A stretch of 64,000 nt of DNA from an uncultured Smithella sp. (GCA_964443625.1 CAYUDM010000008.1:4550-68549); one strand, 5' to 3'; positions 16,808-59,035 are shown, counted from the first letter of the stretch. Notes: generated by a model from the sequence alone, not told the origin. Made by a program: numbers and translations.

Positions 16808-16812
16808 GTTTT

Positions 16813-35440: not shown

Positions 35441-35452
35441 AAACCGGCAGGC

Positions 35453-35511: not shown

Positions 35512-35525
35512 TAAAGAGGTCTTCC

Positions 35526-36037: not shown

Positions 36038-36658
36038 TCAGTTGCGCAAACTATCGAGAAAACGTTCCACCGCCTCGAGGTAGAGCGATTTATACTCATC
36101 CTTGACCAAAATAGTCTTTTCCAATTTTTTAAGATGGATGATGCCGTTGAAGGCGCTCCATAGAATGATGGCCTGTCTGCGGGGATCCAGCGGTTTAAAG
36201 ATCCCGGCGTCAATTCCTTCGCGTATCGCCGAGGCGAGTGTATAGATACTGGCATTGCCCTGTTCATCGATTTTCAGTTTCAAATCAGGTGAAAAGACGG
36301 TCCCGGGAGACGTCAGAAAATAGTTGATGATATCGTAATAATTTTTATGCTCCTCACTGAAGCGCAGATAGGCCCCCGCAATCGACCGTATTTTTTCATC
36401 CGGCGAACATTCGGGGCGGATGGACGCACTGATGCTTTGACGCAGCAGATCCAGCCCTTCGAGTTGAAGGGCGGCAAAAAGCTCTTCCTTGTCCTTAAAG
36501 TAAAAATAGATCGCCCCGACACTCAATTCGGAATGCTTGGCGATCTGATTGATGGACGTTGCGGCCAGACCTTTTTCCAGAAGTAGTTTTCTGGCCGTGT
36601 CGAGGATGTGTTCCTTGCGTTGCTCTTTTTCTCTTTCCCTTCGCTCCTTGGCACCCAT
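36038..36658 (-). CDS. TetR/AcrR family transcriptional regulator
   Basis: HTH TSINQIAKHSELSVGAIYFYFKDKEELF. Confidence 0.93.
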   Translation of the reverse strand: MGAKERREREKEQRKEHILDTARKLLLEKGLAATSINQIAKHSELSVGAIYFYFKDKEELFAALQLEGLDLLRQSISASIRPECSPDEKIRSIAGAYLRFSEEHKNYYDIINYFLTSPGTVFSPDLKLKIDEQGNASIYTLASAIREGIDAGIFKPLDPRRQAIILWSAFNGIIHLKKLEKTILVKDEYKSLYLEAVERFLDSLRN

Positions 36659-36752
36659 AATTCTTTACATTCCCTCAGTATCGTGATCTTCGTGATTAAA
36701 AGTTTTTGTTCCCTACCACCCAAAACCGATTAAATCAAAAAAAATATACCCT

Positions 36753-37028
36753 TCAGCGCACAGTCATCCGGTCCGGCCCTCCGTTTTGGGAAGACTCCCT
36801 GATGACGCGAACATCAAACCACGGTTTCTGCCGCTTTAAGGGACACAAGGCCGCCTTACAAAAACGGATCGGGTCCTCGGGAGGCGCTTTGATGTATTGA
36901 AAAGGCGCCTCCCGATTTTTCAAAAGCCAGGCTTCGGCTTCTGTGCGCGAATTGACGAAGCCGGCCGAATACGTTGTTCTGCCGCGGCAGTGAACAAAGC
37001 CGTATATGAGTTCATAGCGCTCACACAT
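36753..37028 (-). CDS. hypothetical protein (91 aa, 4 Cys)
   Basis: Fills the gap 12 nt after the Zn-dehydrogenase stop, on the same strand; no family recognised. Confidence 0.55.
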   Translation of the reverse strand: MCERYELIYGFVHCRGRTTYSAGFVNSRTEAEAWLLKNREAPFQYIKAPPEDPIRFCKAALCPLKRQKPWFDVRVIRESSQNGGPDRMTVR

Positions 37029-37040
37029 TCCAGCCCAACC

Positions 37041-38063
37041 CTAAAACTCCTCACCGATTTGCAAAAGCACCTTCACGGCCAGACCGGCATCGATTCTCTC
37101 CTTGTAAACAACCGGCAGACGCGACAGCGGTTCATAATCGGAGATGAGCGGCCTCGCGTCAATTTTCCCTTCGGCCATCCACTGCAGACACTGAATGTTC
37201 TCCGCATGTGTGTTGGAGTTCGATGCCGTCAGATGGATTTCCTTGAGATTGACCAAAAAAGGCGCGTCAATCGTCAGCGGCGTAAAAATCATACTGACGA
37301 TGCAGACTTCTCCGCCGTCAGCAGATAAAAGTATTGCGCGATTGATATTGTCCTTCACACCGGAACATTCAAAGATCTTCCGAAATCCTCCCGGAACAAG
37401 GGCCATCGCCTGCTCGTCCGCATCTTTTTCCAAGGGATTCAATACGTAATCCGCGCCATAGCGCAAAGCAATGTCCCGTTTGGCGGCTATCGGCTCGTAT
37501 AAAACGACCGGTCCGTATCCGAGAATTTTAAGGATGCGCACCGCGCACAGCCCGATCGGTCCGCCGCCCATCACCAGCACGGAACCCTGCGCGTCGCTTG
37601 TACAATTGATACCATGCAGTGCCGCGGCAAATGTCTCCGCGAGCGCCGCGTTTCGCGAATCGACGCCCGCGGGAATCTCGATGAGCATTTGGGGAAAAAC
37701 TTTGACGTATTCCGCAAAGCCGCCCGGCAAATCTCCGATGCCTGTGGTGCGCCGGTGAACACGGCAAAGCTGCTGCCTACCGTTTTTACAGTTCACGCAC
37801 TTCCCGCAGTAGGTGGGACGGATGCAAACCCTTGTCCCCACCGGCGGCCCGCCGGCCTTTGCGCCTTTTTCGACGATGCCGGCGCTGATTTCGTGCCCGA
37901 GGATGTAGCCCTCGGCCAGATGACCGCCCGCCACCAGAGAATGATCGGATCCGCAGAATCCCGTATTGGCGACTTTCACCAGGACTTCGTCTTCGGCTAC
38001 CGAATAGTCGGGGACGTCTTCATAAACCAATCCACTCTCTTTTCGAAACACAACAGCTTTCAT
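37041..38063 (-). CDS. Zn-dependent alcohol/polyol dehydrogenase (MDR)
   Basis: GFCGSDH, GHE, structural Zn site CGKCVNC...C, GGGPIG. Confidence 0.93.
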   Translation of the reverse strand: MKAVVFRKESGLVYEDVPDYSVAEDEVLVKVANTGFCGSDHSLVAGGHLAEGYILGHEISAGIVEKGAKAGGPPVGTRVCIRPTYCGKCVNCKNGRQQLCRVHRRTTGIGDLPGGFAEYVKVFPQMLIEIPAGVDSRNAALAETFAAALHGINCTSDAQGSVLVMGGGPIGLCAVRILKILGYGPVVLYEPIAAKRDIALRYGADYVLNPLEKDADEQAMALVPGGFRKIFECSGVKDNINRAILLSADGGEVCIVSMIFTPLTIDAPFLVNLKEIHLTASNSNTHAENIQCLQWMAEGKIDARPLISDYEPLSRLPVVYKERIDAGLAVKVLLQIGEEF

Positions 38064-38088
38064 CGTCTCCTCACCTTGTACCTTCTTT

Positions 38089-39387
38089 TCAATCCTCACA
38101 CACCAACGTAATTTTTTCCACCTTGCTTAAGTCCTTCTCGTAAAAGAAGGAGCCGGCAAAAAACATCAGAGCGGAAACCACCAGAAAAACGGGCAAAATC
38201 GACATGGCCATCTGGATGCCGTGAAGGTCGGACAATTTGCCGATCACAATGGGCGCAAGCGACGCTCCCAAAAGGTTCTGAACCACGACGCACACAGAGT
38301 AGGAAATAGCCCGCAGTCCCGGATGGATGACCTCCTGCGTGGCGGTAATGGCGGCCGGGGCGAACGCGGACGCAAGAACCCCCATCCCCAGAAGGGTAAA
38401 ATATTGCGCCTGGCCGGAAAGATACGAAATCGCGATAAAAATGACTGCGGCATTGAGCGCAGTTGTGATCGCAGGAAACAGCAGACGGGCTCTTTGCCGT
38501 TTTTTAAACCACAAATCAGCCAGCCAGCCGCCCAGCGGCAGACCGACAAGCGCCAGGATCATCAGCAGGCTGACTTTCATGCCCGCATCACTCATGGGGA
38601 TGCCTGTCGTTCGATGCAGGTACGGAGGCATCCACATAATAATGGCATTATTGACGAAGATGCAGCCGACAAACCCGAGGTTGGTAAAAATCAGGGAGGG
38701 CGTTCGCAGAAACTCCCGGACAATATCCATTTTCCCCATCTTGATTTTTACGGAAGGGTCTGCGCAGGACGCATCGGTTTTGACCAGCTCCACCGTCTTG
38801 TAATCCTTGATGAAGAAGAAAAGGATCGCGACCAGCGCGCCGGGAATCGCCACCAGGCCGAAAGCATGCCGCCAGCCCCAGTGCGTGGCGATAAAACCAC
38901 CCAGCCCCATCCCGACGGCAATGCCCAGCGGGATGGAAATGTTCCAAAGCCCCATCATGCGGGATCGCTTTTCCGGAGGGAACAATCCGGAGAGCATCGC
39001 CGTGCCTGCCGGGGCATAGCCGGCTTCGCCGATCCCGATGCAGGCGCGGGCCACGAGCAACTGGGGAAAGGTCCGGGTGAAAGCGCAGGCGGCCGTCGCC
39101 AGGCTCCAAAACAGAGCCATCACGCCCACCGTCTTTTTCCGGCTCCAGCGATCCACGATGATGGAAATGGGAAACACCAGAGCCACAATGGACCAGTAAA
39201 CGACCGACATTAAAAGTCCGGCCTGAAAGTCTGAAAGCCCCCACTCCTCTTGAATAAAAGGAGCAAGGGACGCCACAATCGTTCGATCGACGTAATCAAA
39301 GAAATACAAAAGAAACAGCAGCGCGAAAATGTAATAGGTGCTGGCCTTGGACAGTTTGTACTCCCTGGGTGCAGTTTCGTTATTCAT
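38089..39387 (-). CDS. MFS transporter (spinster/ACS-like)
   Basis: DYVDRTIV, DRWSRKK, RACIGIGEA, about 12 TM segments. Confidence 0.93.
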   Translation of the reverse strand: MNNETAPREYKLSKASTYYIFALLFLLYFFDYVDRTIVASLAPFIQEEWGLSDFQAGLLMSVVYWSIVALVFPISIIVDRWSRKKTVGVMALFWSLATAACAFTRTFPQLLVARACIGIGEAGYAPAGTAMLSGLFPPEKRSRMMGLWNISIPLGIAVGMGLGGFIATHWGWRHAFGLVAIPGALVAILFFFIKDYKTVELVKTDASCADPSVKIKMGKMDIVREFLRTPSLIFTNLGFVGCIFVNNAIIMWMPPYLHRTTGIPMSDAGMKVSLLMILALVGLPLGGWLADLWFKKRQRARLLFPAITTALNAAVIFIAISYLSGQAQYFTLLGMGVLASAFAPAAITATQEVIHPGLRAISYSVCVVVQNLLGASLAPIVIGKLSDLHGIQMAMSILPVFLVVSALMFFAGSFFYEKDLSKVEKITLVCED

Positions 39388-39461
39388 AGGAACCCCTTAT
39401 CTCGTGAGAAAAGGCGCAACTTGTCGGACCGTTCCTGAAAGCGGCAACGAGAAATTGTACC

Positions 39462-41159
39462 TTAATTACATTTGTATCCTCCCAGATTGGCCAGGGCGAC
39501 ACTGCCGGGGCTGATCACAGAGGGATCCACTTTAACATTAATACAGGCGGTTTTGCCGGAGGCAAATGCCGCTTCCAAAGCCGGAGCAATATCATCCGGT
39601 TTTTCCACGTACGCGCCGAATCCGCCCAACACCTCCACCATCTTGTGGTAATCCACCCAGCCCAACTCCGTTCCGTTGGGAATGTTGTGACCCAACCGAA
39701 GTGTCTGGCTGTGCGCGATCATCCCCCAGGACGCATCATTGGCAACAACGACCACAATGGGAAGCTTCTTGCGGATGGCCGTGTGGAATTCCATGAAATT
39801 GAAACCGGTTGCCCCATCGCCGATAATCAATAAAACACGCTGATCCGGATGTTTGAGTTTGGCCGCGTTGGCGTAGGGAATACCGACGGCCAGACATCCG
39901 TAAAGACCATAGTCGAGATAGGTGCCTCCTTTGACGACCGTCCGCGTCATACCCATCCACGTGGAGGTATCGCCGCCGTCGGCAACGACGATATCATCGG
40001 GCCGGTTCATGAATTTGTTGACTTCATGGGCCAATCGCATGGGATGCATGGGCAGGGTTTCGCATTCCCACATGGCCTTGGCATCATTCTTCCCGGCTTC
40101 ATGCGCAGCGCGCACAGTCTCCACCCAGGGCGAATACTGCGCCCAGAGCGCATCGCCGATTTTCTGTTCGTCGATCACCGCGTTGAGCTCCTTCAGGAAG
40201 GATTTGATGTCGCTGACAATCGGCAGATCGACGGTGCGGTTGCGTCCGATTTCATCCGGCGCGATATCGACCTGAATAAATTTTGCCGCAGGCGGAAAAA
40301 TGTCGCCGAAGATATAGAAAAGACTCAAACGGCCGCCCAGGAAAAGCACCAGATCGGTGGTCATGAGCGTGATCATGGCCGAGCCGGGCCGGATCGCCAG
40401 GGAGGATTCAAAGCAAAGCGGATGGGTGTCGGGAAGAACGCCGCGCCCCGCGCCGCCCGTGTAAACCGGAATACCGATCTTTTCCACGAATTCGATCATT
40501 TCTTTTTCTGCGTCCGAGTACCACAGACCGCTGCCGCCGATCACGATGGGATTTTTGGCCGCTTTCAGAAGATCAACAACCTTGCGTGTGTTTTCACGGT
40601 CGACCGGTTTGGAGTCGATCGTTGTGCTGGGCTTTCTAACCAGGCTCATGTCCACTTTGGCGTTGAGAATATTGCAGGGAAACTCCAGATAGACGGGTCC
40701 CGGCCGACCGCTCATCGCCGCTCGAAACGCCATATCGACATACTCGGGAATGCGTTCCGGCACATGGCAGACAAAGGCCTTCTTCACCATCGGTTCAATC
40801 ACGGGAAGTTGCGTCATATCCTGAAGGTCCAGCTTTTCGGTGGCCTCGGTGCCCACGCAGCCGGCAATGAGCACCACGGGCGCATTGGAAAGTCGCGCGC
40901 TGGCGATGCCGGTTAAGGCATTGGTGAAACCGGGGCCGGCCGTAACCATCGCCACCGCCGGCTTTCGGGTCATCCGGGCCGACGCTTCGGCCATGAAAAC
41001 GGCCGCCTGTTCGTGACGCACATCAAAAAGGGTGATGTTTGTTTTTTCCAGATACTGATAAATGGGCGTAATGTGCCCGCCGCTTAAGGAATAAATATAA
41101 TCCACGCCCCGGTCGACCAGGGCGTCCGCAACAAGTTTTCCGCCGATAATGTTATCCAT
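39462..41159 (-). CDS. ThDP-dependent enzyme, HACL2/ILVBL/benzaldehyde-lyase-like
   Basis: SGGHI, DVRHE, TAGPG, LQD, ADGGDT, GDG...NDASWG ThDP motif. Confidence 0.85.
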   Translation of the reverse strand: MDNIIGGKLVADALVDRGVDYIYSLSGGHITPIYQYLEKTNITLFDVRHEQAAVFMAEASARMTRKPAVAMVTAGPGFTNALTGIASARLSNAPVVLIAGCVGTEATEKLDLQDMTQLPVIEPMVKKAFVCHVPERIPEYVDMAFRAAMSGRPGPVYLEFPCNILNAKVDMSLVRKPSTTIDSKPVDRENTRKVVDLLKAAKNPIVIGGSGLWYSDAEKEMIEFVEKIGIPVYTGGAGRGVLPDTHPLCFESSLAIRPGSAMITLMTTDLVLFLGGRLSLFYIFGDIFPPAAKFIQVDIAPDEIGRNRTVDLPIVSDIKSFLKELNAVIDEQKIGDALWAQYSPWVETVRAAHEAGKNDAKAMWECETLPMHPMRLAHEVNKFMNRPDDIVVADGGDTSTWMGMTRTVVKGGTYLDYGLYGCLAVGIPYANAAKLKHPDQRVLLIIGDGATGFNFMEFHTAIRKKLPIVVVVANDASWGMIAHSQTLRLGHNIPNGTELGWVDYHKMVEVLGGFGAYVEKPDDIAPALEAAFASGKTACINVKVDPSVISPGSVALANLGGYKCN

Positions 41160-41186
41160 AATAAATCCTCCTAAAACAAATTGATT

Positions 41187-42026
41187 TTATAACTCCATAC
41201 ATTGACCGCCATCGATGTTGATCGCTTGGCCGGTCATATATTTTGACGCATCCGACGCCAGGAAAGCCACCAGGTCGCCCGCTTCGGAAGGCGCGCCGAT
41301 GTAGCCCAGCGGGATCGTCTTGCACATTTCCTTTTCGCGCTCCTCAACCGTTGTGCCAAAGAAGGATGCCTCCAGGCCGAAGCGCCACTTTTCCAGATCG
41401 GTGGCGATCTGCCCCGGACAGATGGCGTTTACCCTTATGCCGTTTCCGCCCAGTTCCTTGGCCATCGTTTTGGTCAGCATGATCACCCCCGCCTTCGCCA
41501 CCGCATAGGCGCTGTTGAAAAGCGGCGGAACTTTTCCGGCCCGGGATGCCGTATTGATGATGACGGCGGGCTTGCCCATCATCAAAGGGATGACGGCTCT
41601 TGAGATGCGGAAGACGGAAAACAGGTTCACATCGATGGTTCTGATCCAGGCCGCCTCGTCATATCCCAAAACTGTATTGGGCACGCCGAAAGACGCGCCC
41701 GCGTTATTGCACAGAATGTCGATGCGGTCGAAGGTCGCTTTGATGGTTTCCACCATGGCGCCGATGGCCTGATTGTCCGTCACGTCCACGGTCACGGCCA
41801 GAGTTTTTACGCCATAGGTCTTGGCAAGCTCCGCGGCGATGGCTTCCATTTCCCCGCTGGTGGCGGATTTCAGGGATTCGCCCGGAACCGGCGGTTGGCC
41901 CAGATCGGCAATCACGATGTTGCATCCGTTTGCGGCCAGTTTTTCGGCAATGGCGTAGCCGATGCCGGTTTTTTTGCCGGCCCCTGTCACGATGGCTGTT
42001 TTTCCTTTCAAATCACTATAAATCAT
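41187..42026 (-). CDS. short-chain dehydrogenase/reductase (likely NAD-dependent)
   Basis: [23 protein letters not shown]; start overlaps the xsc stop, RBS GAAGGAGG. Confidence 0.92.
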
Positions 42027-43779
42027 CTGCTCCTCCTTCATCATACCAACGACGATAGTCCAGGTGCGCGTACTTGGGAAGCATGCGCGTCGGCAGCGCG
42101 AGCGCATCCTTGCGGAAAGGCGGCGCCAGCTGTTTTCCGTCTACCAGGAATTCCAGCACGGTGGGTTTGCGGCTCTTGATGCAGGCAAGGAATGCCTCCC
42201 GGATATCCTGCGGACGGCTGACCTGCATGCTGTTGGCCCCCATAGCTTTCGCGACCGGCACAAAACTTTCAGGATTCGGAATATCCACGCCGACGAAGCG
42301 GTTATTGTAGAAATCGACCTGGTTTTTGGCCTCCGCGCCCCACCACATATTGCGGAAGACGCAGGCGATCACGGGCAGATTGTGCTCCACGGCCGTGCTG
42401 ACTTCGTGCAGGCTCATTCCCCAGGCGCCGTCACCGATGATGGCGACAACCGGCGACTTGGGCTTGGCAATCTGCGCGCCGAGCGCCGCCGGATAGGCAA
42501 AGCCCGTGTTGCCGAAGGTGAGCGCCGCGATATGCCGGCGGGGATGGTTGAACTTCAGATAGCTGTTGGCTGTTGAGGAAACATTGCCGATATCGGTGGT
42601 CACGATGGCGTCATCTGGAAGCGCCCGTGCGATTTCCAGCAAAACCCGGCGCGGATTCATGGGGTTTCCGTCCACCATCGCCAGATCGACAAGTTCCTTT
42701 TCCCATTTCTTCTTCTCTCGGGCCACCGCCGTCAGCCTCTTTTCATCCGGCTTGCGTTTACCGTCTTTCGCTTTCAGGCGCTTCAGAATTTCCGCGGAGG
42801 CTTCCTTGGCATCCCCGATAATGCCCACGGAAATGGGGTGCGTGCGGGCGATGTGCTTGGGATTGATATCGACCTGGATGATCTTCGCGTTTTCGGGGAA
42901 GTAGTTGATGTCATATTGCGGCAAGGTGCCGAAAACGGACAGCCTGGTGCCGATGGCCAGCATGACGTCGGCTTTCGCCAGCGTCTTCATGGCCGCCTTG
43001 GACCCCATGTAGCCGATGGGCCCGACAGAAAGGGGATGGTTGCCGTAAAACGCATCGTTGTGCAGGTAGGTCACCGCCACCGGCGCCGTCAGATGTTCGG
43101 CGATCGCTTTGACAATGTCCAGCGCGTCGGCGTCCACCACGCCCCGTCCCGAAACAATGACCGGATTTTTCGCCTGCGACAAAAGCTCGGCCGCGCGATC
43201 AAGCTGCTCAATGGCGCCGCAGCCGCGCGCATCCACCCGGTATTGTGACGGCTGCAGAATTCTTTCTTCCAGTTCACCGTAGAAATAGTCGCGGGGAATG
43301 TCATAGAGCACAGCGCCGCGGTCGGCATAGGCGATGCGGAAAGCCGTTCTCAAACAATCAGCCGCCCTCTTCGGATGAGGCACTCGGACAACGGCTTTGG
43401 TGATGGCCCGGAAAACCGACATCTGGTCGCATTCCTGAAAACCGTCCCAGCCGATCGTCGGCGTTCCGGCCGAAGGCGAGAGAATGACCAGCGGCGTATG
43501 CCCCATATTGGCGGCGGCGACCGACGTGACCATATTGGTGATGCCGGGACCGTTTTGCCCGGTGACGACGCCGCAACGCCCCGATACGCGGCAGTAGGCG
43601 TCTTCCATATGCGCGGCGCTCTGTTCGTGGCGGACGGGAATGAATTTTATTCCCGCCGTCGGAAAGAGATCCAGCATGTCCATAAAGGCCGAGCCGACGA
43701 TGCCGCAGACATGATCCACGCCTTCGGCCAGCAGGGTCTCCACAATCGCTTCACTGGGCGTCATTTTGATTTTTTTCAT
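42016..43779 (-). CDS. xsc: sulfoacetaldehyde acetyltransferase
   Basis: [84 protein letters not shown]. Confidence 0.93.
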
Positions 43780-43850
43780 TTTTAAACCTCCAATGCATTC
43801 AAACGTTAATGATCTTCACGAGAAAACGCTTCTTTTCCGAAGGAGCTTTT

Positions 43851-45056: not shown

Positions 45057-45063
45057 GAAAGCC

Positions 45064-47945: not shown

Positions 47946-47952
47946 GGCATCC

Positions 47953-48729: not shown

Positions 48730-49136
48730 TTTTTCACCTCTTCCGGAACAAGATGACAGCTATAGCAGGTGGGTTTGGCGCCCACGTAATCATGACAGCG
48801 GTCGCAGAATTGTTCCTTGTTGCTGTGGCAGCGAAGGCAGGAATGGGTCAGGCTTTTTTCGAACTTGCGGCCGTCTTTCGCGGTGTACTGGCGTTTGCCT
48901 TCTCGAACGGCCTCATCGCGCCAGCCCTTGAGCATCTTCATATGATCCGTGCGCATCACGGCCGTATCTTCGACGCATTTTTTGTCCTGCATTGACTGAA
49001 TAACGGGCGTATCCAGACTGAGCACAGGCGCCGGCGCTGATTGAATCGCGCCGTACCAGAAGGGAAAAGTAGCCCCGAGAAGGAAGATTCCCAAACCCAG
49101 AAGAATTAAACCCCATTTATATTGTTTCATCTTCAC
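48726..49136 (-). CDS. dsrJ: DsrJ triheme cytochrome c
   Basis: N-terminal TM, CVE...MRTDHM, CLRCH, CDRCH, CYSCH. Confidence 0.95.
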   Translation of the reverse strand: MKMKQYKWGLILLGLGIFLLGATFPFWYGAIQSAPAPVLSLDTPVIQSMQDKKCVEDTAVMRTDHMKMLKGWRDEAVREGKRQYTAKDGRKFEKSLTHSCLRCHSNKEQFCDRCHDYVGAKPTCYSCHLVPEEVKK

Positions 49137-49160
49137 ACGTTCCGTAATATGTTTACGTTC

Positions 49161-49291
49161 AGCTATGAGCTATGAGCTGCGAGCTGCACCCCATTCACCC
49201 TCCCCCTGCCCCTCCCATCAAGGGAGGGGAGGTGATTCAATTATTCGTGCTATTCCCTCTCCCCACGTGGGAGAGGGTCAGGATGAGGGGG
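49161..49291. repeat. heptamer array plus an inverted pair of CCCTC(T)CCC-N5-GGGAG(A)GGG REP-like hairpins
   Basis: agctatg x2, agctgcg, agctgca (49161-49188); unit A 49189-49230; unit B 49253-49291 in the opposite orientation. Confidence 0.8.
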
Positions 49292-50888: not shown

Positions 50889-50890
50889 GG

Positions 50891-51892
50891 CTACTCCTTC
50901 TCCACCGGCAGACCGGCCGCTTTCATTTTATCGCGGAATTCGTCTTCATATTCTTCATAGGTATGCACCTTCACGGGGCCGTTCCATGGATTGATGTGTC
51001 TTTGGCTGCGGTTGTTATTGATCATGTTGCGCGTGGGGCTCAAAAAGATGCCGCCCCAATGCATCAGTTTGCTCCACGGCAGCCAGACCATCAGCGTGAA
51101 GATCAAACATAAGTGCATATACAGGAAAGCGCCCGCTTCTTCGGGAACAACCGGCGTCAACGTCACCCAGCCGATCACCAGGGTTTTTACGGCATGCAGA
51201 TCGACGGCAAAGAAGTGCCTCATCATAAGTCCCGTTCCGGCAATTCCCGCAATCAAAAACAGGGCGAAATAATCGGTAAATAAAGAAATGTAACGCACCT
51301 GCGGCCCAACGACTCTTCGCAGGAGCAGAAAGGTCAATCCCGCCAGAAGCGCCGCGTCGCTTAAGTAAAGCGCCGGAGTGCCGATTTCCAGAAAACCGTC
51401 CAGCGAGGAAAGTCCGTTGATAAAAGGCGCGATGGGTTCCGTGAAAAAGCGCAGATGCCGAAGTGCTACGATAAGGAGCGATCCGTGAAACATCAGGCCG
51501 AAAAACCACAGCCATTTGGCGCTGCCGAACACCTGGCGACCATCGATCATCTGCACATCGGAATTACGAAAAAGCGACCGGAACAGGAAAATCTCGCCGG
51601 CCATTCTTCCGATAACACTCACCTTGCAGCAGGGATTTTCGAGCGGATTGTTTTGAATCCAGGGCAGGCTTTTTTGCTGGCCGCAGGTGGTCGGAATGCG
51701 GAAAGGAACCGGGGCCTTTGCCCATTTTACAACCCGGTACACAAAGCCGAACAGGAAAAGAACAAATACGGCATACGGGACAATCATCGCCAGAAGATAG
51801 CTTCCCGCAGGATTAGCCGAGATGGCCGCGGCCAGAAGGGCAATACCGAAAACCAGAATGAGGGGCAACAGTACCTTCATAAAGAATCTCAC
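50891..51892 (-). CDS. dsrM: DsrM (NarI-like diheme b membrane subunit)
   Basis: PVPFRIPTTCGQQKSLPWI, E.FLFRSLFRN, FHGSL...LRHLR, PWSKLMH...FLSPTRN. Confidence 0.96.
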   Translation of the reverse strand: MRFFMKVLLPLILVFGIALLAAAISANPAGSYLLAMIVPYAVFVLFLFGFVYRVVKWAKAPVPFRIPTTCGQQKSLPWIQNNPLENPCCKVSVIGRMAGEIFLFRSLFRNSDVQMIDGRQVFGSAKWLWFFGLMFHGSLLIVALRHLRFFTEPIAPFINGLSSLDGFLEIGTPALYLSDAALLAGLTFLLLRRVVGPQVRYISLFTDYFALFLIAGIAGTGLMMRHFFAVDLHAVKTLVIGWVTLTPVVPEEAGAFLYMHLCLIFTLMVWLPWSKLMHWGGIFLSPTRNMINNNRSQRHINPWNGPVKVHTYEEYEDEFRDKMKAAGLPVEKE

Positions 51893-53514
51893 TTATCCGA
51901 TAGGTCTTCCCACGACGGTTCTTCACCGAAGCGGATCATCGGTTTTTGCATGCCTTCGAGAGCATTGACGATCAACTCGACCAGTCCGCCGTAATGCAGG
52001 TTGCTTCGTGCTTCTGCGTCGTAATAGTGAATCAGATCACGGATCGCTCCCTTGCAGTTCGAGCAGGGGGCGCAGACGTATTTGGGCGTATCTTGCGGTT
52101 CGTTCTCAAAAGCTTTTAGAATCTGCAGAAACTTTTTGCGCGAGCTGACCAGGTTTCGCCAGTCGGTGAAATTATATCCCGACATGATGGCAAAGCCCGA
52201 TCCGCCGCCGCAGCAATAGTTATGAACGCCGTGCGGCGTCATTTCCCGGAAGCGCGGCGCGATTTTTCTTAAAATTCTTCTTTGCGGTTCGACAATGCCC
52301 ATTGAGCGCACGACATTGCAGGGATCATGCAGCGTGACGGGGAAATTGTTCTTCCGTGGATCGAATTTCAATCGGCCGCTCAGAACGATATTTTCCAGTG
52401 TGACCAGCGCCGACTCCCGCGGAATGTTCAGATCGCCCGTCAACAGCCGGTCGGCAATGACCGTCAGCGCCTTATGCGCGTGCCCGCACTCGCCGATCAC
52501 GATTTTTTTCACTTTGAGCCTGCGGGCAATGTCCGCATGTTTGACGGCAACGCGCGAGAATTGCACATCGTCGTACCACAGGCCGTAATTGACGGCATCA
52601 TAACCCACCGCTTCAGAAGACAAGGTCCACGAAAGGCCGGCCGCCTGGAAGAGAATCGCAAAAGCGCCTACGCTTTCCGGCCAGGCCAGCATTTCACCGG
52701 CATTGTGCAAAAGCAGAATATCCGCCCCTTCGACGTCCCAGGGAATCTCGACCGGATAGCCGGTAATTTCTTCCATCTCTTCCCTGATAAACTCAATGCT
52801 GTCTTTTGCCGCCGGAGGAGTCATCCCTGTTGAAGAACCGGACTTCAGATGCAAAACGGTACCCTTCTCATGGAGTTCTTTCGGAGCGATGCCCATTTCC
52901 TGCGAAAACAGTTTGCGGATTTCATGGTTGATCAGTCCGTTATCCACCCCGATGGGGCAGACCGAAGCGCAACGACGGCAAAGGGAGCAGCGGTAAGACA
53001 ACTCCGCCAAGCGCGCGATGGTTGTCCAGTTCAAATCGATATCGTAGCCCAGCCGGGCTGTAATTTTTCCGCCCGGTTTGAGATATTTTTTATAAATGCG
53101 GCGCAGGACTTCCGAACGAAAGACCGGCCGGTAAATCTCCTGACGTCCACTCATCTCAAAGACAGGACAAGCATCCGAACAGGTCTGGCATCGGGCGCAA
53201 TGCTCCATGGACAAAAGCAGAGGCTGCAAAAACGTCCAGTTGTTCTCTTTTTCGAAAAGCTTCTTCAGGCCGGAAAGGAAACGCAACACCAGTGCTTCCT
53301 CTTCCTCACGGCTGGCGGGCTTCGGAATGCCGATGGCGACGGTGTCATCAAGCGATGCTTCGATATTTTTTATTTTCTCGGCTTTGAGCGGCGCAGGCCC
53401 CCTGCCATTGAAATCTTCATACGGCGGAGGCAGAGGTGCAAGGTCTCCAGGCTCGATGCGGCTCAAGCGATCGGTCGCAGCGGCAATGTCGGACGGTTTC
53501 AGGAGGGGTTTCAT
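51889..53514 (-). CDS. second DsrK-like Fe-S/CCG protein (DsrK2)
   Basis: CARCQTCSDACP, CSLCRRCASVCP, GECGH, HDPCN, CCGGGSG, CAPCSNC. Confidence 0.85.
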   Translation of the reverse strand: MKPLLKPSDIAAATDRLSRIEPGDLAPLPPPYEDFNGRGPAPLKAEKIKNIEASLDDTVAIGIPKPASREEEEALVLRFLSGLKKLFEKENNWTFLQPLLLSMEHCARCQTCSDACPVFEMSGRQEIYRPVFRSEVLRRIYKKYLKPGGKITARLGYDIDLNWTTIARLAELSYRCSLCRRCASVCPIGVDNGLINHEIRKLFSQEMGIAPKELHEKGTVLHLKSGSSTGMTPPAAKDSIEFIREEMEEITGYPVEIPWDVEGADILLLHNAGEMLAWPESVGAFAILFQAAGLSWTLSSEAVGYDAVNYGLWYDDVQFSRVAVKHADIARRLKVKKIVIGECGHAHKALTVIADRLLTGDLNIPRESALVTLENIVLSGRLKFDPRKNNFPVTLHDPCNVVRSMGIVEPQRRILRKIAPRFREMTPHGVHNYCCGGGSGFAIMSGYNFTDWRNLVSSRKKFLQILKAFENEPQDTPKYVCAPCSNCKGAIRDLIHYYDAEARSNLHYGGLVELIVNALEGMQKPMIRFGEEPSWEDLSDK

Positions 53515-54467
53515 TTGACCTCCCTGGGCGTTGACGATGCAATGTCCTTCCAGGATTTACGCCCGTCCGCTTCGATGTGTTTGGCCTGCCACGTCGGACG
53601 ATAATTCAAATTCGTCAGCACAGCCGCCTCAATGTCATTGCCGCGCCGACTGGGCCTGTCGTCCCACTTGACCTGATGGTAAAGAAAATATTTCATAAAC
53701 ATGTGTGACATGTGGGTCAGCGGAATATAGGCGGCCAGCAGCGATCCGAGAAGAATCGTCAGCACACCGTAAAGCGTTTGCCCCGGCTGGTAACCGGACG
53801 CAAAGCTTCCCGCTGTCAAAAGGCCTGTGACGTAGGACGAGGCCGCATCAAAGGAAGGATCGGCCAGGGCCGCGGTTAGCAGTCCGCAGACAAAAAATGC
53901 CAGAAACAAGACGAGGTTGATATAATCCGCAGGCGTGGCATAGAGCTTCATCTCCCGGTCGACCAGGCGCGTAAACAGCAGGCCGAGCGAGCCGAAAAAG
54001 CCCGCGGCAAGTCCGATCCAGCCGCAGATGAAAGCAAGTCCGCCAAGCGCTGTTTTCAGAACGCTGCCTTCGGCAAAGATCGAAGGACCCCATACGGTCA
54101 AGCCGGCCGAAATCAGAAACAGGGCAAAGGTTGCCAGCACCAGATACAGCCCCAGGTGAAACGGAAAAGAAACCCACCAGAGTTTTTTGTTTTCTTTCCA
54201 AAGGCCTCTCAAAAGCAAGATTTCCGGCGCCATATATTTGAACTCATTTGCCCGGGATGTTTCATGAGAAGACTTCCACCAGTCCGGCTCTTCCAGGTAG
54301 GAGCCCCCGTAGGCCGCCTTGGCGGCCGTCTCATGCTGAACCGGATAAACCTCCCAACGAACATGCACAGGAAGCTTTAACTGTCTTACGACACGCCAGG
54401 CAACAGCCGCCGCAAAGACGATCAGGCAAACGTAGGTAAAAATATAAAATCCCATAAACAACACCAC
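53511..54467 (-). CDS. second DsrM-like NarI-family membrane protein (DsrM2)
   Basis: PVHVRWEVYPVQHE...GGSYLEE..WW, FPFHLG, YIPLTHMSHMF. Confidence 0.85.
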   Translation of the reverse strand: MVLFMGFYIFTYVCLIVFAAAVAWRVVRQLKLPVHVRWEVYPVQHETAAKAAYGGSYLEEPDWWKSSHETSRANEFKYMAPEILLLRGLWKENKKLWWVSFPFHLGLYLVLATFALFLISAGLTVWGPSIFAEGSVLKTALGGLAFICGWIGLAAGFFGSLGLLFTRLVDREMKLYATPADYINLVLFLAFFVCGLLTAALADPSFDAASSYVTGLLTAGSFASGYQPGQTLYGVLTILLGSLLAAYIPLTHMSHMFMKYFLYHQVKWDDRPSRRGNDIEAAVLTNLNYRPTWQAKHIEADGRKSWKDIASSTPREVK

Positions 54468-54586
54468 TACTTATTTCCATGGTGACGCCGCCGACAAAAC
54501 GACAGCGATAAATTGATACCCTAGCTAGAGCATCCGAGGCCACAAGACCGCTTAATCCCTGCCAGAAGCTGCTTCCACCACCTTCT

Positions 54587-54710
54587 ATTTCTTTTCCAAA
54601 TCAAGATGATACCGCGGCGGCAAGGAGGAGGCGCCGAAGGCGTATTATTAATACGTCGAGGACGCCGACGACGCTGCCAACAAAGGTAGCGCTTGATTTC
54701 GGAAAGAAAT
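54587..54710. repeat. 124-bp palindromic MITE/REP-like element
   Basis: 19-bp terminal inverted repeats (17/19 match: atttcttttccaaatcaag and cttgatttcggaaagaaat) with a nested internal stem ggcgtatta-t-taatacgtc. Confidence 0.7.
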
Positions 54711-55030
54711 CACACGCAGCCGGTCGGCTTGGATAATCCCGCCAGTTTGCAGGCCCCTTTGGCCGGACCGGTTGGAAAAAGCTCATAGAGTTTTTTCATA
54801 TCGATTTTCAAATCTTTGCAAATCTTTCGGATCATGGGCGCAATGCCGAACTGCTGGAAGTAATCCCGCAGATAGTTGATCACGCGCCAGTGCTCTTCCG
54901 TCAGGTCCCCCTCGATGTCTTCAGCGGACGCGTAAGCATTGGCAAATTCTTCGTTCCATTGGTCGAGATCCTGCAGGAACCCGTCTTCATCCACTTCATA
55001 CGTTTTACCGGCTAATTCGATTTGCGGCAT
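54710..55030 (-). CDS. dsrC: DsrC sulfur carrier
   Basis: VDEDGFL, LTEEHW, ELFPTGPAKGACKLAGLSKPTGCV with both C-terminal Cys (Cx10C). Confidence 0.97.
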   Translation of the reverse strand: MPQIELAGKTYEVDEDGFLQDLDQWNEEFANAYASAEDIEGDLTEEHWRVINYLRDYFQQFGIAPMIRKICKDLKIDMKKLYELFPTGPAKGACKLAGLSKPTGCV

Positions 55031-55064
55031 ACCTTATAACCTCCTGATTGATTCAATTTCCTTT

Positions 55065-56528
55065 TCATAATGATCTCCTGCTCTTGCCTGAAGTGCTCAC
55101 CGGAAGATCCCGGTTTGACAAAGCAGACTGATTTGTTTTCGATCGGCGGTAGGCATCAGCGGCGCTTACGAGCGCCCCGGCCCACTCGGGGGTTCCCAGG
55201 GCGTGCAGATGCGTAAAGCCCGCCAGAATATTATTTTTGCTCATGCCGTCGCGGCCGTTACCGATGCCTGTTCCGCGCAGAACATAGTAAGCGGTTTGAA
55301 TATCTTCATCGCCCGATGAAAAAATTCGGCAGTAATGAAACTCATGGCCGGTTAACGTCTGGCCGATGGGGAAGAAAGGGTTCTCCCGATCCACAACCAC
55401 GGTGGTGTAGCCGTGACCCTGAGGCTTATTTTCCAGGCGGAATGTTACGGGCAAGGCGCCGGCCATTGGATAGCGTTTGTCGCCGATCACCAGGGTTTCG
55501 CCCAGATAGATAAATCCTCCGCATTCGGCGTAAATCGGCAACCCGGCTTCCGCTGCGTCTTTGAGGGAACGACGAAAGGCTTCGTTTGCGGCCAGCTTCT
55601 CCGCCTGCGTTTCAGGAAATCCCCCGCCGATGTACAAGGCATCGACCGGCGGCAGGGCTTTTTCGGAAAGCGCGCTGATTTCGACGATCTTCGCCCCGCG
55701 GTCGGACAGGGCGAGAATATTGTCCGAATAATAAAATTGAAACGCCGCGTCTTTGAGGACACCGATTCGAACAGGTTCCGAAACCGTACGGCGCGAGCGG
55801 GGCGAATCGGGAAACGCGTCGATCGTCCAGGCCGGCGCGCCTTTGGCGACCTCAAGCAATCCGGCAACGTCCAGATAATCCTGGGCAATGGACTGCGCTT
55901 TTAGAAGCGCCTGCTCCATGCCGTCGTGTTCCTCGGGGGGAATCAGGCCCAGATGGCGCTGCATAAAAGGCAGGTCCGGCAGACGCGGCACAACCCCGAA
56001 AACAGGAAGGCCTGTTGATTCTTCGATGGCCCGGCGGATCACGGACGCATGGCGATTGCCGCTCACCCGGCTTAAGATCACGCCTTGAACGTTGACCGCG
56101 GAATCGAGATGAAGGCAACCCAGCACCATGGCCGCCGCCGTCCGCGTGACCTTGTCGCAGTCGACCACCAGGATCACAGGGGCAGCTAGCAGCTTGGCCA
56201 GTTCGGCCGTGCTGAAATCTCCCGTGGCGTTCACGCCGTCAAATAGACCGCGATTGCCTTCAATGAGCGAAATATCCGCGTGCGCACAGTGGCGCGCAAA
56301 AGACCGGGCCACCTGATCGGCGCCCATGAGGTATGTGTCCAGGTTGGAACAGGGACCGGATGCCGCCCGGGACAACCAGGCGGCGTCAATATAATCCGGT
56401 CCCTTTTTGAAAGGGGCGATTGTCAGACCCAGACGGCGCCAGGCAGCAATCAAGGCCACCGAGAGGGTTGTCTTTCCCGCTCCGCCTCGCAGGGCGGCCA
56501 TCACTAAACGCGGACATGATCGATTCAT
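55065..56528 (-). CDS. dsrN: DsrN siroheme amidase (cobyrinate a,c-diamide synthase family)
   Basis: GGAGKT, FKKGPDYID, IEGNRGLFDG, ERHLGL-like QRHLGL, AECGG, GHEFHY; position directly after dsrD. Confidence 0.92.
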   Translation of the reverse strand: MNRSCPRLVMAALRGGAGKTTLSVALIAAWRRLGLTIAPFKKGPDYIDAAWLSRAASGPCSNLDTYLMGADQVARSFARHCAHADISLIEGNRGLFDGVNATGDFSTAELAKLLAAPVILVVDCDKVTRTAAAMVLGCLHLDSAVNVQGVILSRVSGNRHASVIRRAIEESTGLPVFGVVPRLPDLPFMQRHLGLIPPEEHDGMEQALLKAQSIAQDYLDVAGLLEVAKGAPAWTIDAFPDSPRSRRTVSEPVRIGVLKDAAFQFYYSDNILALSDRGAKIVEISALSEKALPPVDALYIGGGFPETQAEKLAANEAFRRSLKDAAEAGLPIYAECGGFIYLGETLVIGDKRYPMAGALPVTFRLENKPQGHGYTTVVVDRENPFFPIGQTLTGHEFHYCRIFSSGDEDIQTAYYVLRGTGIGNGRDGMSKNNILAGFTHLHALGTPEWAGALVSAADAYRRSKTNQSALSNRDLPVSTSGKSRRSL

Positions 56529-56555
56529 ATCTTTCTACCTGATATCGTGCGACTC

Positions 56556-56780
56556 TTACTCTTTCGGAAAATACTCGGCCAGGATCAGATAGGTCGAACT
56601 TCCGCTGGACCAGTATTTCAGAACTTCTTCATCGAGAAGTTCTTTCACAACATTCTGAATGGCATGGCGATCCTCACCCGGAAGCCACTTCGTGACGTCC
56701 CGGATGTAGAACATTTTCTTGTCGCCCTTTGATTTTTCCCGAAACAACTCTGTGATTTTCGCTTTCAGATCGTCGCTCAT
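56556..56780 (-). CDS. dsrD: DsrD
   Basis: 74 aa, MFYIRD...YWSSGSSTY; 4 nt downstream of dsrB. Confidence 0.92.
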   Translation of the reverse strand: MSDDLKAKITELFREKSKGDKKMFYIRDVTKWLPGEDRHAIQNVVKELLDEEVLKYWSSGSSTYLILAEYFPKE

Positions 56781-56784
56781 TTTT

Positions 56785-57846
56785 TTACCTCCACTTAAAC
56801 TGCGCGGATGTCCGGAAAGTTTCCGTGGCCAGATCAAAGTCATCGATATGCTGGTCGGTAAAGGGAATTCCCGTCAGGGAGAAGAAGCGTTCCCAGCCGA
56901 CGCGCTCGATCCATTCGCCCACGCGTTCATGCTTTTTTGCGTGGCTTGCGTACACTTCAATGATGTTCTTGACGGCGTCGACCACTTCCGGCCAGCGCGG
57001 CGGATTGTTGGGCAGAAACGGAATCGCCAGTTTGGAAAACATTGGCTTGCTGCGGGCGTTGGAAACTTTTCCGCCCACCCAGATGGAAATTCCGTCGTTG
57101 TCCGGATCGGCAATCGGCATCGCCGGACAAACGGTGTAGCAGTTGCCGCAGTACATGCATTTCTCGTCATTGACGGTCAGCGTTTTATTTTTCATATCGC
57201 CGCGGATGGCGCCCGTCGGACACGAGGCCACCGTTGAGGGGATTTCACAGACATTGGGCACGCGGGAGTTATCGGTCTTTGGCACTGTCCGGTGAATGCC
57301 CAGAATGGCGATGTCCGAGCAATGCACCGCGCCGCACATGTTCAGACAGCAGGCGAGCGCAATCCGGACATGCGCGGGAAGTTTGGCTTCCACGAAGTGT
57401 TCGTAAATTTCGTCCATCAAGGCTTTGACCGGGCCGGAGGCGTCGGTGGCGGGCGTGTGGCAGTGGACCCAGCCTTGCGTGTGGACGATGTTGGAAATGG
57501 AGTGCCCTGTGCCGCCCACGGGATAGCCGCGTTTTGTCAACTCGGCAATCAGCGGTTCGAGTTGTTCCTTGTCGTCCAGCAGAAATTCGATGTTGTGGCG
57601 GCTGGTGAATCGCAGAAAGCCTTCGCAGTATTTTTCCGCGATGTCGCAGATCTCGCGGATGTGATCCGTCGAAACCAGGCGTGGAGAGCCGGCGCGCACG
57701 CTGTAGAGCGCTTCTCCCGATTCGCCCACGTGCATCAGGACGCCGGGTTTTACAATCTCATGATACATCCATTTGCCGTAATTTCGCTCGATCACGGGCG
57801 GCAGCATGGTCTTATAGTTGGGGGGTCCGATATCCGTTTTTGCCAT
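56785..57846 (-). CDS. dsrB: dissimilatory sulfite reductase beta subunit
   Basis: [50 protein letters not shown]. Confidence 0.98.
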
Positions 57847-57847
57847 T

Positions 57848-59035
57848 TTACTTTTCCTCCTTCTTGAGATCTTCGGGCCAGAAGAAGACATAGGGGTTGG
57901 TTCTGGGCGCTTTGACCATCTGCGGCACCGCGGGCAGGCCGACCGCTTTCAAAAAGACCCGCATCCCCAGGCGCTGAATCAGCTCACCCAGACGTTCACG
58001 CGATTTTCCGAACTCATCCCACCAATCCTGAATGCGTTCGATCAGATCTTTCAATTCATCATAAGGCGGTTCGAGTTTCATAAACGGCACAACCACCCAG
58101 GACAGAAGCGCCCCTTTCACAATCGGCGCTTTGCCGCCCACGAGAATGGACGCGCCGGTTTCTTTCCCCGGCCGCAGGGCTTTGGGCATGACGTTGATGC
58201 AGTGCATGCAGCGTGTGCAGTCTTCGTCGTAGATTTTGAGTTCTTTGCCGTTCCATTCCATGCAGCGTGTCGGGCACAGATCACAGACTTCCTTTTGGAT
58301 GTTGATGTTTTCCGCGTAGGCTAGCACTTCATCGGCATTGATCCGGATGGCGTCTTTCCAGGTGCCGATAATCGACAAATCGGATCGGGCAATCGATGCG
58401 ACACAATCATTGGCGCAGGCGGAAATCTTGATTTTGAATTTGTAGGGGAACATCGGGCGATGCATCTGATCCTGATAGGTCATGGTGAGATTGTAGCAAA
58501 GATCGAGGCTGTCGACACAGGCCCACTCGCAGCGCGCAGGGCCGACGCAGGCACTCGGCGTGCGCAGCGCCGAACCGGAACCGCCCAGATCGAAGCCGGC
58601 GTCCGACAGATCGTTGAAACAGGGCTGGAGATGCTCCGTGGTGGTTCCCAACAAAATGGCATCCCCTGTCGACCCGTGCATATTGGTGAGCCCGCTTCCA
58701 TGTTTGTCCCATATCTCGCACAGCTTGCGCAACGCGTCTGTTTTGTAAAACCATCCCGCGGGATGATTAACCCGCATGGTATGGAACGCCTGGACATTCG
58801 GGAATAGATCGGGGCGATCAGAATAGCGGCCGATGACGCCGGAACCGTAGCCCTTGACGCCGACTATGCCTCCATGTTTCCAGTGGCCGATTTTATCCTT
58901 GTAGGATAGTTCCAGCTGATGCAAAAGATCTTTGGCCATCGGATTCTTTCGGGCAGCCTCTTTCATGTCTTTGACGAAGCTCGGCCATTGGCCTTTTTCC
59001 AGTTCGTCTAATAAGGGAGTATCGAATTGCCCCAT
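57848..59035 (-). CDS. dsrA: dissimilatory sulfite reductase alpha subunit
   Basis: [59 protein letters not shown]. Confidence 0.98.

Follow-up and report, generated by a model that had tools for sequence, protein, structure and literature searches.

The window analysed in this study is a 64-kb stretch (64,000 nucleotides) from an uncultured Smithella sp. (GCA_964443625.1, CAYUDM010000008.1:4550-68549), in which genes for dissimilatory sulfite reduction (dsr) are continuous with xsc and ackA, encoding sulfoacetaldehyde acetyltransferase and acetate kinase, and with further genes that may supply Xsc with its substrate. From 59035 down to 36038 the block comprises 21 consecutive, co-oriented open reading frames (ORFs), all on the minus strand, in the order dsrABDNC, dsrM2K2, dsrMKJOP, a flavoprotein joining coenzyme A-disulfide reductase (CoADR) and rhodanese domains, ackA, xsc, a short-chain dehydrogenase/reductase (SDR), a second thiamine diphosphate (ThDP) enzyme termed ThDP2, a major facilitator superfamily (MFS) transporter, a zinc-dependent alcohol dehydrogenase (Zn-ADH), a 91-amino-acid (91-aa) ORF and a TetR-family regulator (Table 1). 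Identities were assigned with Pfam and NCBIfam, the NCBIfam scores being quoted as bits against the curated equivalog cut-off, and both the gene assignments and the run of 21 minus-strand genes given in the original prediction, which had been made from the sequence alone, proved correct. The starts set by the ORF caller were too long for the flavoprotein, ackA, the SDR, the Zn-ADH, dsrB and dsrD, for which shorter starts were taken from relatives and alignments (DsrB of relatives has 353 aa, their DsrD 74-78 aa). GC content shows no break across the dsr/xsc junction, and over the whole window an Rfam scan returned no family and no tRNA was found.

The NCBIfam equivalog cut-offs are exceeded by DsrA, DsrB, DsrM, DsrK, DsrJ, DsrO, DsrP, AckA and Xsc, and the DsrMKJOP complex is thus complete, with all five subunits above their cut-offs, while DsrK2 stays under the DsrK threshold (NF045796, 336 bits vs 400). 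A Cx5C...Cx3C siroheme/FeS motif can be read in the DsrA sequence, and DsrC keeps both conserved C-terminal cysteines at their 10-residue spacing (ACKLAGLSKPTGCV). DsrD is a marker of reductive-type Dsr, and the DsrA and DsrB equivalogs together with DsrD identify the system as reductive and bacterial in type. The presence of DsrD, and the lack of dsrEFH and dsrL among the block proteins in Pfam and NCBIfam, argue against an oxidative (rDsr-type) Dsr.

Xsc, which is 94-95% identical to Smithellaceae Xsc in a homologue search, contains the VRHEQ motif with the cofactor-activating Glu and the ThDP-binding signature GDGAWG...RNMWWGAE, both read as motifs and not from a structure. By the position rule of PMC13327070, its C2-alpha Glu (NMWWGAE) is found 6 residues past the Mg-binding Asn and is equivalent to E510 of Q84H41; the enzyme is predicted to cleave sulfoacetaldehyde, in a phosphate-dependent reaction, to sulfite and acetyl-phosphate. 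The flavoprotein scores under the NCBIfam cut-offs for plain CoADR and fits the NADH persulfide reductase/CoA-persulfide reductase type, consisting of a CoADR part and a C-terminal rhodanese domain, each with its active-site cysteine (Cys54 in SYAAC54 and Cys535 in C535LLGLR). In addition to the best solved structure given in Table 1, it matches 3nta (1.5e-99), 8a56 (6e-89) and 3icr.

Direct reading places the start ATG of the flavoprotein on the dsrP stop codon, in an ATGA overlap (46764-46761), and leaves 7 nt between the flavoprotein and the ackA ATG; ackA and xsc are 71 nt apart, a strong GGAGG site being located in between, and the xsc stop overlaps the SDR start by 11 nt. According to the ORF coordinates, dsrM2/dsrK2, dsrK2/dsrM and dsrJ/dsrO overlap by 4 nt each, and the overlaps named in the original prediction (these three, dsrP/flavoprotein and xsc/SDR) are therefore all real. 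The same holds for its two gaps of 242 and 141 nt with palindromic inserts, since both lengths are exact and both gaps hold inverted repeats, those of the 141-nt spacer forming stems of 9 bp and 8 bp (CCCTCTCCC/GGGAGAGGG and CCCCTCCC/GGGAGGGG). In relatives, the length of the dsrK-dsrJ spacer varies between -19 and 268 nt and that of the dsrC-dsrM2 spacer between 5 and 103 nt, and because these lengths differ so widely the two gaps are best regarded as variable inserts and not as conserved signals. A window search with a consensus palindrome built from the hairpins of the 141-nt gap found no copies and missed the gap hairpins themselves too.

Table 1. Genes, spacers and candidate regulatory sites of the dsr-xsc block, in window coordinates
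Feature	Position	Strand	Evidence or remark
Operator-like palindrome CATTCACTTAACGAATG after the dsrA promoter-like site	59116-59100	-	lead only
Promoter-like site TTGACA-17-TAGCAT upstream of dsrA	59142-59114	-	promoter scan, 10/12 matches
dsrA, dissimilatory sulfite reductase alpha subunit	57848..59035	-	TIGR02064 564 bits vs 393; Pfam NIR_SIR
dsrB	56785..57891	-	TIGR02066 528 bits vs 342; true start probably near 57846
dsrD	56556..56843	-	PF08679, E = 6e-15; true start probably near 56780
dsrN-like sirohaem (cobyrinate-type) a,c-diamide synthase, CobB-like	55065..56528	-	CbiA + GATase_3; PRK01077 426 bits vs 254
dsrC	54710..55030	-	PF04358, E = 2e-38
242-nt spacer dsrC-dsrM2	54468..54709	-	long imperfect hairpin, folding z = -2.1
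dsrM2, divergent NarI/DsrM-like membrane cytochrome b	53511..54467	-	Pfam Nitrate_red_gam only; no NCBIfam match
dsrK2, divergent DsrK/HdrD-like CCG iron-sulfur protein	51889..53514	-	Fer4_8 + CCG
dsrM	50891..51892	-	NF038037 457 bits vs 300
dsrK	49278..50888	-	NF045796 746 bits vs 400
141-nt spacer dsrK-dsrJ	49137..49277	-	two perfect GC-rich hairpins, folding z = -4.0
dsrJ, triheme cytochrome c	48726..49136	-	NF038038 154 bits vs 100; three CXXCH motifs
dsrO	47953..48729	-	NF045797 312 bits vs 200
dsrP	46761..47945	-	NF045798 485 bits vs 350
CoADR-rhodanese flavoprotein	45064..46764	-	Pyr_redox_2 + Rhodanese; best solved structure 6pfz, E = 2e-149
ackA, acetate kinase	43851..45056	-	PF00871 E = 5e-138, full length; TIGR00016 459 bits vs 293
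ackA-xsc spacer	43780..43850	-	weak hairpin + T-run (43812-43850), palindrome, GGAGG ribosome-binding site
xsc, sulfoacetaldehyde acetyltransferase	42016..43779	-	TIGR03457 853 bits vs 676.4; NF005713 849 vs 620
Classical SDR dehydrogenase	41187..42026	-	adh_short_C2
ThDP2, second ThDP enzyme, POX/ALS-type	39462..41159	-	single chain, 565 aa, three domains
MFS transporter, anion:cation symporter type, galactonate-transporter-like	38089..39387	-	MFS_1 E = 7e-58; TIGR00893 178 bits, below cut-off
Zn-dependent alcohol dehydrogenase, threonine/sorbitol-DH-like	37041..38063	-	Pfam/NCBIfam
91-aa ORF, cysteine-containing	36753..37028	-	no Pfam or NCBIfam match
TetR-family regulator, final gene of block	36038..36658	-	TetR_N E = 2e-16

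Conservation was assessed by an Xsc search of one genome per GTDB species and by comparing each of the 21 block proteins with the Xsc loci obtained, in a tblastn matrix; L-numbers denote the Xsc/dsr loci compared from public assemblies, and the 45 loci with an Xsc at least 83% identical to that of the block are referred to as Syntrophales-type. All Xsc homologues at 85-95% identity belong to Smithella, Smithellaceae or Syntrophales, the next being those of Firmicutes at about 80%. Genes dsrK to dsrP are found directly upstream of xsc in 27 of the 32 Syntrophales-type loci whose sequence extends over 4.5 kb upstream, and with L047 (Xsc 82.x%) included the dsrMKJOP-xsc linkage stands at 28/33, which bears out the proximity of xsc and dsr that the original prediction had proposed looking for across GTDB genomes; dsr genes were found near none of the 30 Firmicutes/Bacillus-type Xsc loci. 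The full architecture is present in 17 loci, and the linked set includes two chromosome-scale records, OY820932.1 and OY821638.1 (4.8 Mb and 5.2 Mb).

The order shared by the public assemblies is dsrC-M2K2-MKJOP-(flavoprotein)-(ackA)-xsc-SDR-ThDP2-MFS-ADH-small ORF-TetR, and the dsrP-xsc distances form classes: 10-57 nt with nothing in between (L018, L020 and L037), about 1.28 kb with ackA, about 1.76 kb with the flavoprotein, about 2.57 kb with another gene and ackA, and about 2.95 kb with the flavoprotein and ackA, as in the window. These discrete classes indicate that xsc stays linked to the 3' end of dsrMKJOP whichever insert is present. In L005, which has no flavoprotein, ackA itself overlaps dsrP; the flavoprotein occurs in only 8 Syntrophales-type loci, so that the unit can do without it. 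The genes on either side of the block vary from genome to genome, L007, the nearest relative, being the exception, and the retention of the linkage while both insert and flanks vary excludes a chimera and argues for selection on adjacency. An assembly chimera at the junction had been named in the original prediction as one way in which the finding could fail; the junction recurs in dozens of independent assemblies, including the 4.8-Mb and 5.2-Mb records, GC content is continuous across it, and the probability that the junction is such an artefact, or that the Dsr is of the oxidative type weighed above, is in our judgement negligible.

The Syntrophales-like host that had been proposed is likewise borne out, Xsc being 95% identical to that of Smithellaceae genomes and L007 sharing the flank. 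Just beyond tetR, at 32228-35927 on the plus strand, are genes for a methylmalonyl-CoA mutase, MeaB and a glyoxalase-type epimerase, found again in L007 at 92-96% identity; this flank fits a propionate-metabolising Smithellaceae host.

The genes downstream of xsc would form its feeder module. Among the loci compared, the SDR is always paired with ThDP2 beside xsc, and both are invariant partners of xsc in Smithellaceae. The nearest solved structures to the SDR are gluconate-5-dehydrogenase, FabG and 3-hydroxybutyrate dehydrogenase; its assignment as an HpsO orthologue is not supported, RpHpsO (8WWF) being absent from the best 60 solved-structure matches. The Zn-ADH gives a moderate and partial match to DsHpsP (8WWD; E = 6.5e-26, residues 12-224). 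The MFS transporter is presumed to be the sulfonate importer. In every locus with the full architecture the 91-aa ORF separates the Zn-ADH gene from tetR, its copies being 53-76% identical, and TetR is kept in position in at least 17 loci. Neither a taurine aminotransferase nor an alanine dehydrogenase was found in the block with Pfam and NCBIfam, and the feeder is therefore not a taurine route.

The most unusual part of the block, and one that the original prediction did not mention, is ThDP2, a chain of the pyruvate oxidase/acetolactate synthase (POX/ALS) type. Among solved structures it comes closest to 2-hydroxyacyl-CoA lyase/synthase and oxalyl-CoA decarboxylase (E about 1e-83), followed by benzaldehyde lyase (1e-75), and it remains below every NCBIfam cut-off (2-hydroxyacyl-CoA lyase (HACL) 345/600 bits, oxalyl-CoA decarboxylase (OXC) 305/557, PRK05858 409/587). 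The C2-alpha-protonating Glu of Xsc and of the actinobacterial lyase is replaced by Met (NDASWGM vs NMWWGAE), and on the grounds of this residue and of the scores, ThDP2 was rejected as a 2-hydroxyacyl-CoA lyase or oxalyl-CoA decarboxylase. In architecture it also differs from the sulfopyruvate decarboxylase ComDE, being a single chain as opposed to the two subunits ComD and ComE. A homologue search returned only unnamed or 'acetolactate synthase' proteins of Syntrophales at 76% identity or more, which is uninformative on function, and no usable residues deciding CoA-dependence were found in the literature.

A ThDP2-like enzyme of Firmicutes, found in Desulfosporosinus and in one Bacillota genome, is 37-39% identical to ThDP2, shares its ELQD and NDxxWGMI motifs and has a short C-terminus. 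The two Desulfosporosinus loci read xsc, a 3-hydroxyacyl-CoA-dehydrogenase-family protein, MFS, the ThDP2-like enzyme and SCP2, one of them (L060, 4536-14187) continuing downstream with a Zn-ADH and an aldehyde ferredoxin oxidoreductase (AFOR), the other (L080, 6337-15984) having AFOR upstream of xsc; in the Bacillota locus, the ThDP2-like enzyme is encoded a few genes upstream of xsc. The combination of dehydrogenase, transporter, ThDP2-like enzyme and Xsc consequently recurs in two phyla, and the Desulfosporosinus clusters look like a parallel, undescribed sulfonate cluster of Firmicutes.

Two readings of the feeder may be considered. In one, the SDR would oxidise sulfolactate to sulfopyruvate, which ThDP2 would convert to sulfoacetaldehyde and CO2, giving a non-orthologous version of the SlcC/ComDE route; in the other, 2,3-dihydroxypropane-1-sulfonate (DHPS) would be the substrate, the SDR and Zn-ADH playing the parts of HpsO and HpsP and yielding sulfolactaldehyde that would then undergo cleavage by a ThDP lyase or further oxidation. 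Homology favours neither, since the Zn-ADH match is moderate and the SDR generic. Our best guess, on which confidence is evenly divided, is that the substrate is a C3 sulfonate, either DHPS or sulfolactate; by our own arithmetic the use of DHPS would be redox-neutral (C3H7O5S- -> acetate + CO2 + H2S + H2O).

The dsrAB genes are the standard marker for sulfate reducers. As had been claimed, none of sat, aprAB, qmo, pta or a glycyl-radical enzyme is present among the ORFs of the 64-kb window scanned with Pfam, which therefore does not contain the canonical combination of sat-aprAB-qmoABC with dsr. It could be argued that only 64 kb of this genome were seen and that the host is a canonical sulfate reducer, with sat, aprAB and qmo encoded outside that stretch and the proximity of xsc incidental. 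Against this, Table S1 of Diao et al. 2023 (PMC10591310) scores sat, aprA, aprB, qmoA, qmoB and qmoC as 0 in 17/17 Syntrophales genomes with dsrAB, and dsrA, dsrB and dsrD as 1 in all 17, while dsrT, present in most sulfate reducers on the same table page, is again 0 in 17/17. Independently, a Smithellaceae population was reported to have dsrABD without the other key sulfate-reduction genes, and was flagged as carrying an unexplained partial pathway (PMC10504345). We therefore regard a canonical sulfate reducer as very improbable. Since sat, aprAB and qmoABC are absent from all 17 of these genomes, the suggestion in the original prediction that dsrAB here marks the use of sulfite or sulfonates and not sulfate reduction is well founded.

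Two genomes of that table, PHBD01 and UBA2251, match by assembly-derived name our loci L044 and L046, which carry dsr-ackA-xsc. The same review places 'uncultured DsrAB family lineage 6' in Syntrophales and does not mention xsc (PMC10591310), a study of dsr synteny makes no mention of xsc, sulfoacetaldehyde, sulfonates or acetate kinase (PMC10504309), and Syntrophales dsrAB are still placed under sulfate reduction, for example in PMC12740246. In our literature search no paper was found joining Smithella or Syntrophales with sulfoacetaldehyde or sulfonates, though an earlier mention is possible.

The closest known system is that of Taurinivorans muris LT0009, which degrades taurine via Tpa-Ald-Xsc, gains ATP via AckA and respires the sulfite with DsrAB-DsrC, without sat or qmoAB (PMC10507020). 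The block resembles it in the route from Xsc to acetyl-phosphate and sulfite, in ATP formation by AckA and in the delivery of sulfite to DsrAB/DsrC, and also in that sat and qmo are found neither in the window nor in related Syntrophales genomes. As this kind of respiration has been demonstrated experimentally in T. muris, calling the block a candidate new system, as the original prediction did, was too strong. Unlike T. muris, a member of the Desulfovibrionaceae, the host belongs to a lineage of syntrophs, the Syntrophales; the block has no taurine aminotransferase, alanine dehydrogenase or TRAP transporter, its feeder being made up of SDR, ThDP2, MFS and Zn-ADH; and xsc/ackA are continuous with dsrMKJOP, an arrangement that the T. 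muris paper does not describe (PMC10507020).

With the IslAB pathways of Bilophila wadsworthia and Desulfovibrio the block shares the use of an organosulfonate as sulfite donor for Dsr respiration. It differs from them in that no glycyl-radical enzyme or radical-SAM activase domains were found by Pfam in the window, in that its Xsc is oxygen-insensitive and ThDP-dependent, and in that the product is acetyl-phosphate, not acetaldehyde. A dehydrogenase and a ThDP enzyme acting before Xsc would mirror the conversion of sulfolactate to sulfopyruvate and sulfoacetaldehyde in the route of aerobes through SlcD or SlcC/ComC, ComDE, Xsc and Pta, and the combination of SDR, Zn-ADH and MFS recalls that of HpsO, HpsP and the MFS importer HpsU (PMC11382572, PMC11131964); in contrast with the sulfolactate and DHPS routes of aerobes, the block lacks HpsN (histidinol-dehydrogenase-like), SuyAB and Pta, and ThDP2 is not ComDE. 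In Firmicutes, xsc clusters encode an Xsc 73-82% identical to that of the block and none stands beside dsr genes; Desulforamulus ruminis L006 has the classical tauABC-ald-tpa-xsc, taurine genes that the block lacks, whereas the Desulfosporosinus clusters resemble the block in combining xsc with MFS, a dehydrogenase and a ThDP2-like enzyme. Three features appear to be undescribed: the clade-wide physical fusion of xsc/ackA with the dsr operon, the presence of an Xsc/dsr block in textbook syntrophs, and a non-taurine feeder (SDR, a ThDP enzyme resembling HACL, OXC and benzaldehyde lyase (BAL), and a transporter), which recurs beside xsc in Desulfosporosinus.

On this evidence the block probably represents the clade-conserved organosulfonate-respiration genes of Smithellaceae and related Syntrophales. 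In the pathway that we propose, a hydroxylated sulfonate would be imported by the MFS permease and turned into sulfoacetaldehyde by the SDR and ThDP2 (whose reaction we infer), with the Zn-ADH as an accessory, after which Xsc would split sulfoacetaldehyde with phosphate into acetyl-phosphate and sulfite. AckA would convert acetyl-phosphate to acetate and ATP, and the cytoplasmic sulfite would be reduced to sulfide by the reductive-type DsrAB/DsrD with DsrC, the latter being re-reduced by the DsrK of DsrMKJOP and possibly also by the extra DsrM2K2 pair. The flavoprotein, in those genomes that have it, would be an accessory, probably handling persulfide or polysulfide by-products. A bolder proposal, conceivable and on balance rather doubtful, is that Smithellaceae and related Syntrophales are facultative organosulfonate respirers with a dedicated super-operon, in which ThDP2, as a new kind of ThDP enzyme, leads from a C3 sulfonate to sulfoacetaldehyde by a route not described so far; ThDP2 would then act on sulfopyruvate, either as a decarboxylase made of one chain or as a desulfonating enzyme of POX-like type, or else be a lyase of sulfolactaldehyde.

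The same genes could also serve mainly a fermentative or carbon-energy pathway for sulfonates, with Dsr chiefly disposing of toxic sulfite and surplus reducing equivalents. Substrate-level ATP formation by AckA is in keeping with this, as are the redox balance, on paper, of the conversion of DHPS to acetate, CO2 and H2S and the fermentation of taurine via Xsc by Desulfonispora (cited in PMC10507020). However, the DsrMKJOP membrane complex and an extra DsrMK pair, through which the pathway is coupled to energy conservation, have been retained; fermentation as the main role thus seems improbable to us, and it overlaps respiration without excluding it.

Several observations weigh against the interpretation of the block as genes for organosulfonate respiration. 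The linkage of dsr and xsc is frequent, not obligatory, as in L031, L033, L040, L043 and L056 xsc-SDR-ThDP2 is found with no dsr within 10 kb. The feeder is not uniform either, since the more distant Syntrophales loci L005 and L041-L048 have dsr-ackA-xsc without SDR or ThDP2, and in L005 dsr...P-ackA-xsc is kept with other genes downstream. The SDR is a generic classical SDR with no specific closeness to any known sulfonate dehydrogenase, ThDP2 fits none of the characterised families, and we know of no cultured Smithella or Syntrophus that respires sulfonates. Finally, the hairpin between ackA and xsc may attenuate or terminate transcription or mark a processing site, and xsc may have a separate promoter. 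This hairpin is the main reason for calling the co-transcription of the dsr and xsc parts putative, and the self-contained unit of the original prediction is likewise a presumption. In most relatives (L003-L048) the hairpin and T-run keep their position while varying in sequence; the spacer is about 60-95 nt long in most of them and only 22 nt, without the hairpin, in the L022-L028 group. Just 5' of the xsc ribosome-binding site there is also a palindrome, CATTAACGTTTGAATG (43811-43796), conserved in the nearest relatives, and the hairpin and palindromic site suggest that the sulfonate module may have its own control.

These elements, conserved in position, would also suit two adjoining and separately transcribed units, one comprising dsr genes for the respiration of inorganic sulfur (sulfite, thiosulfate) and the other a TetR-controlled xsc module serving as an optional source of sulfite, and the five loci with xsc-SDR-ThDP2 apart from dsr and the promoter-like site of the dsr operon itself are in line with such a division. 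It is nevertheless difficult to reconcile with the 10-57 nt between dsrP and xsc in the loci where nothing separates them, with the overlap of ackA or the flavoprotein with the dsrP stop codon, and with a linkage that has outlasted extensive sequence divergence (dsrM being 56-79% identical) and changes of the flanks, which argues for selection on adjacency. We consider two separate units unlikely and continue to prefer a single block for organosulfonate respiration.

Three of the loci without nearby dsr genes illustrate how the sulfonate module is composed on its own: L040 (4708-16294) reads DASS transporter, PF03601, ackA, xsc, SDR, ThDP2, SBF transporter and SDR; L056 (8738-15410) reads ackA, xsc, SDR, ThDP2 and SBF transporter; and L031 (8426-15857) runs from TauE and xsc to ThDP2 and MFS. 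In L040 and L056, the SBF-family transporter stands in for MFS. TauE, PF03601 and the DASS and SBF transporters belong to the usual accessory equipment of sulfonate clusters and speak for the interpretation as organosulfonate respiration; proteins of the TauE/SafE and YeiH/TauZ types typically serve such clusters by exporting sulfite or sulfate.

Smithellaceae and related Syntrophales are usually regarded as obligate syntrophs. Their 'orphan' dsrAB (uncultured DsrAB lineage 6) are often scored as sulfate reduction, and dsrAB of Syntrophales occur widely, in digesters, peat, aquifers and lake sediments. The conserved physical link to Xsc/AckA suggests that organosulfonates are an internal electron sink of these syntrophs, which would explain the occurrence of dsrAB there. 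If true, these bacteria would depend less on methanogenic partners, electrons would be diverted from methane to sulfide in low-sulfate habitats, and surveys based on dsrAB would need to be re-read. The ThDP2 family linked to xsc constitutes a defined target and a candidate new enzyme of sulfonate biochemistry.

As to the control of the block, the promoter-like site and operator-like palindrome upstream of dsrA have a counterpart in L087 (about 9900-9960), where the same layout is found, TTGACA-17-TACCAT followed by CATTCAATTACTGAATG, with perfect 6-bp arms and diverged flanks. A CATTCA-N4/5-TGAATG pattern is present both at the dsrA promoter-like site and upstream of xsc, with window-wide counts within chance, and terminator and promoter scans of the window gave no excess over shuffled expectation. 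The pattern may be a putative shared repressor site, for instance for the TetR of the block.

Other observations concern the surroundings of the dsr genes. A gene of the PF03601 family (YeiH-type, putative sulfate/sulfite exporter) is located just upstream of dsrA in L087-L089 (8017-9462 in L087, 7194-8297 in L089); at this place the window has a 450-aa ORF of no known identity on the plus strand (59292-60644). The AFOR gene at 61266-63347 (plus strand), 2.2 kb upstream of dsrA and on the opposite strand, was rejected as part of the system, not being conserved upstream of dsrA in L087-L089; in Firmicutes, some xsc clusters (L049, L060, L080) have an AFOR gene within or next to them. Between dsrC and the dsrM2K2-like pair, L089 has, at 14585-20402, genes for a Macro-domain protein, a DsrK-like/receiver fusion, a PAS histidine kinase and a stand-alone receiver. 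Elsewhere in the window, the plus strand carries, at 1248-5660, an exosortase (EpsH) followed by a 7TM-GAF histidine kinase and a sigma-54-dependent response regulator, unrelated to the block, and, at 26759-28102, a membrane protein resembling the oxaloacetate decarboxylase beta subunit, with a short internal match of the biotin/lipoyl type.

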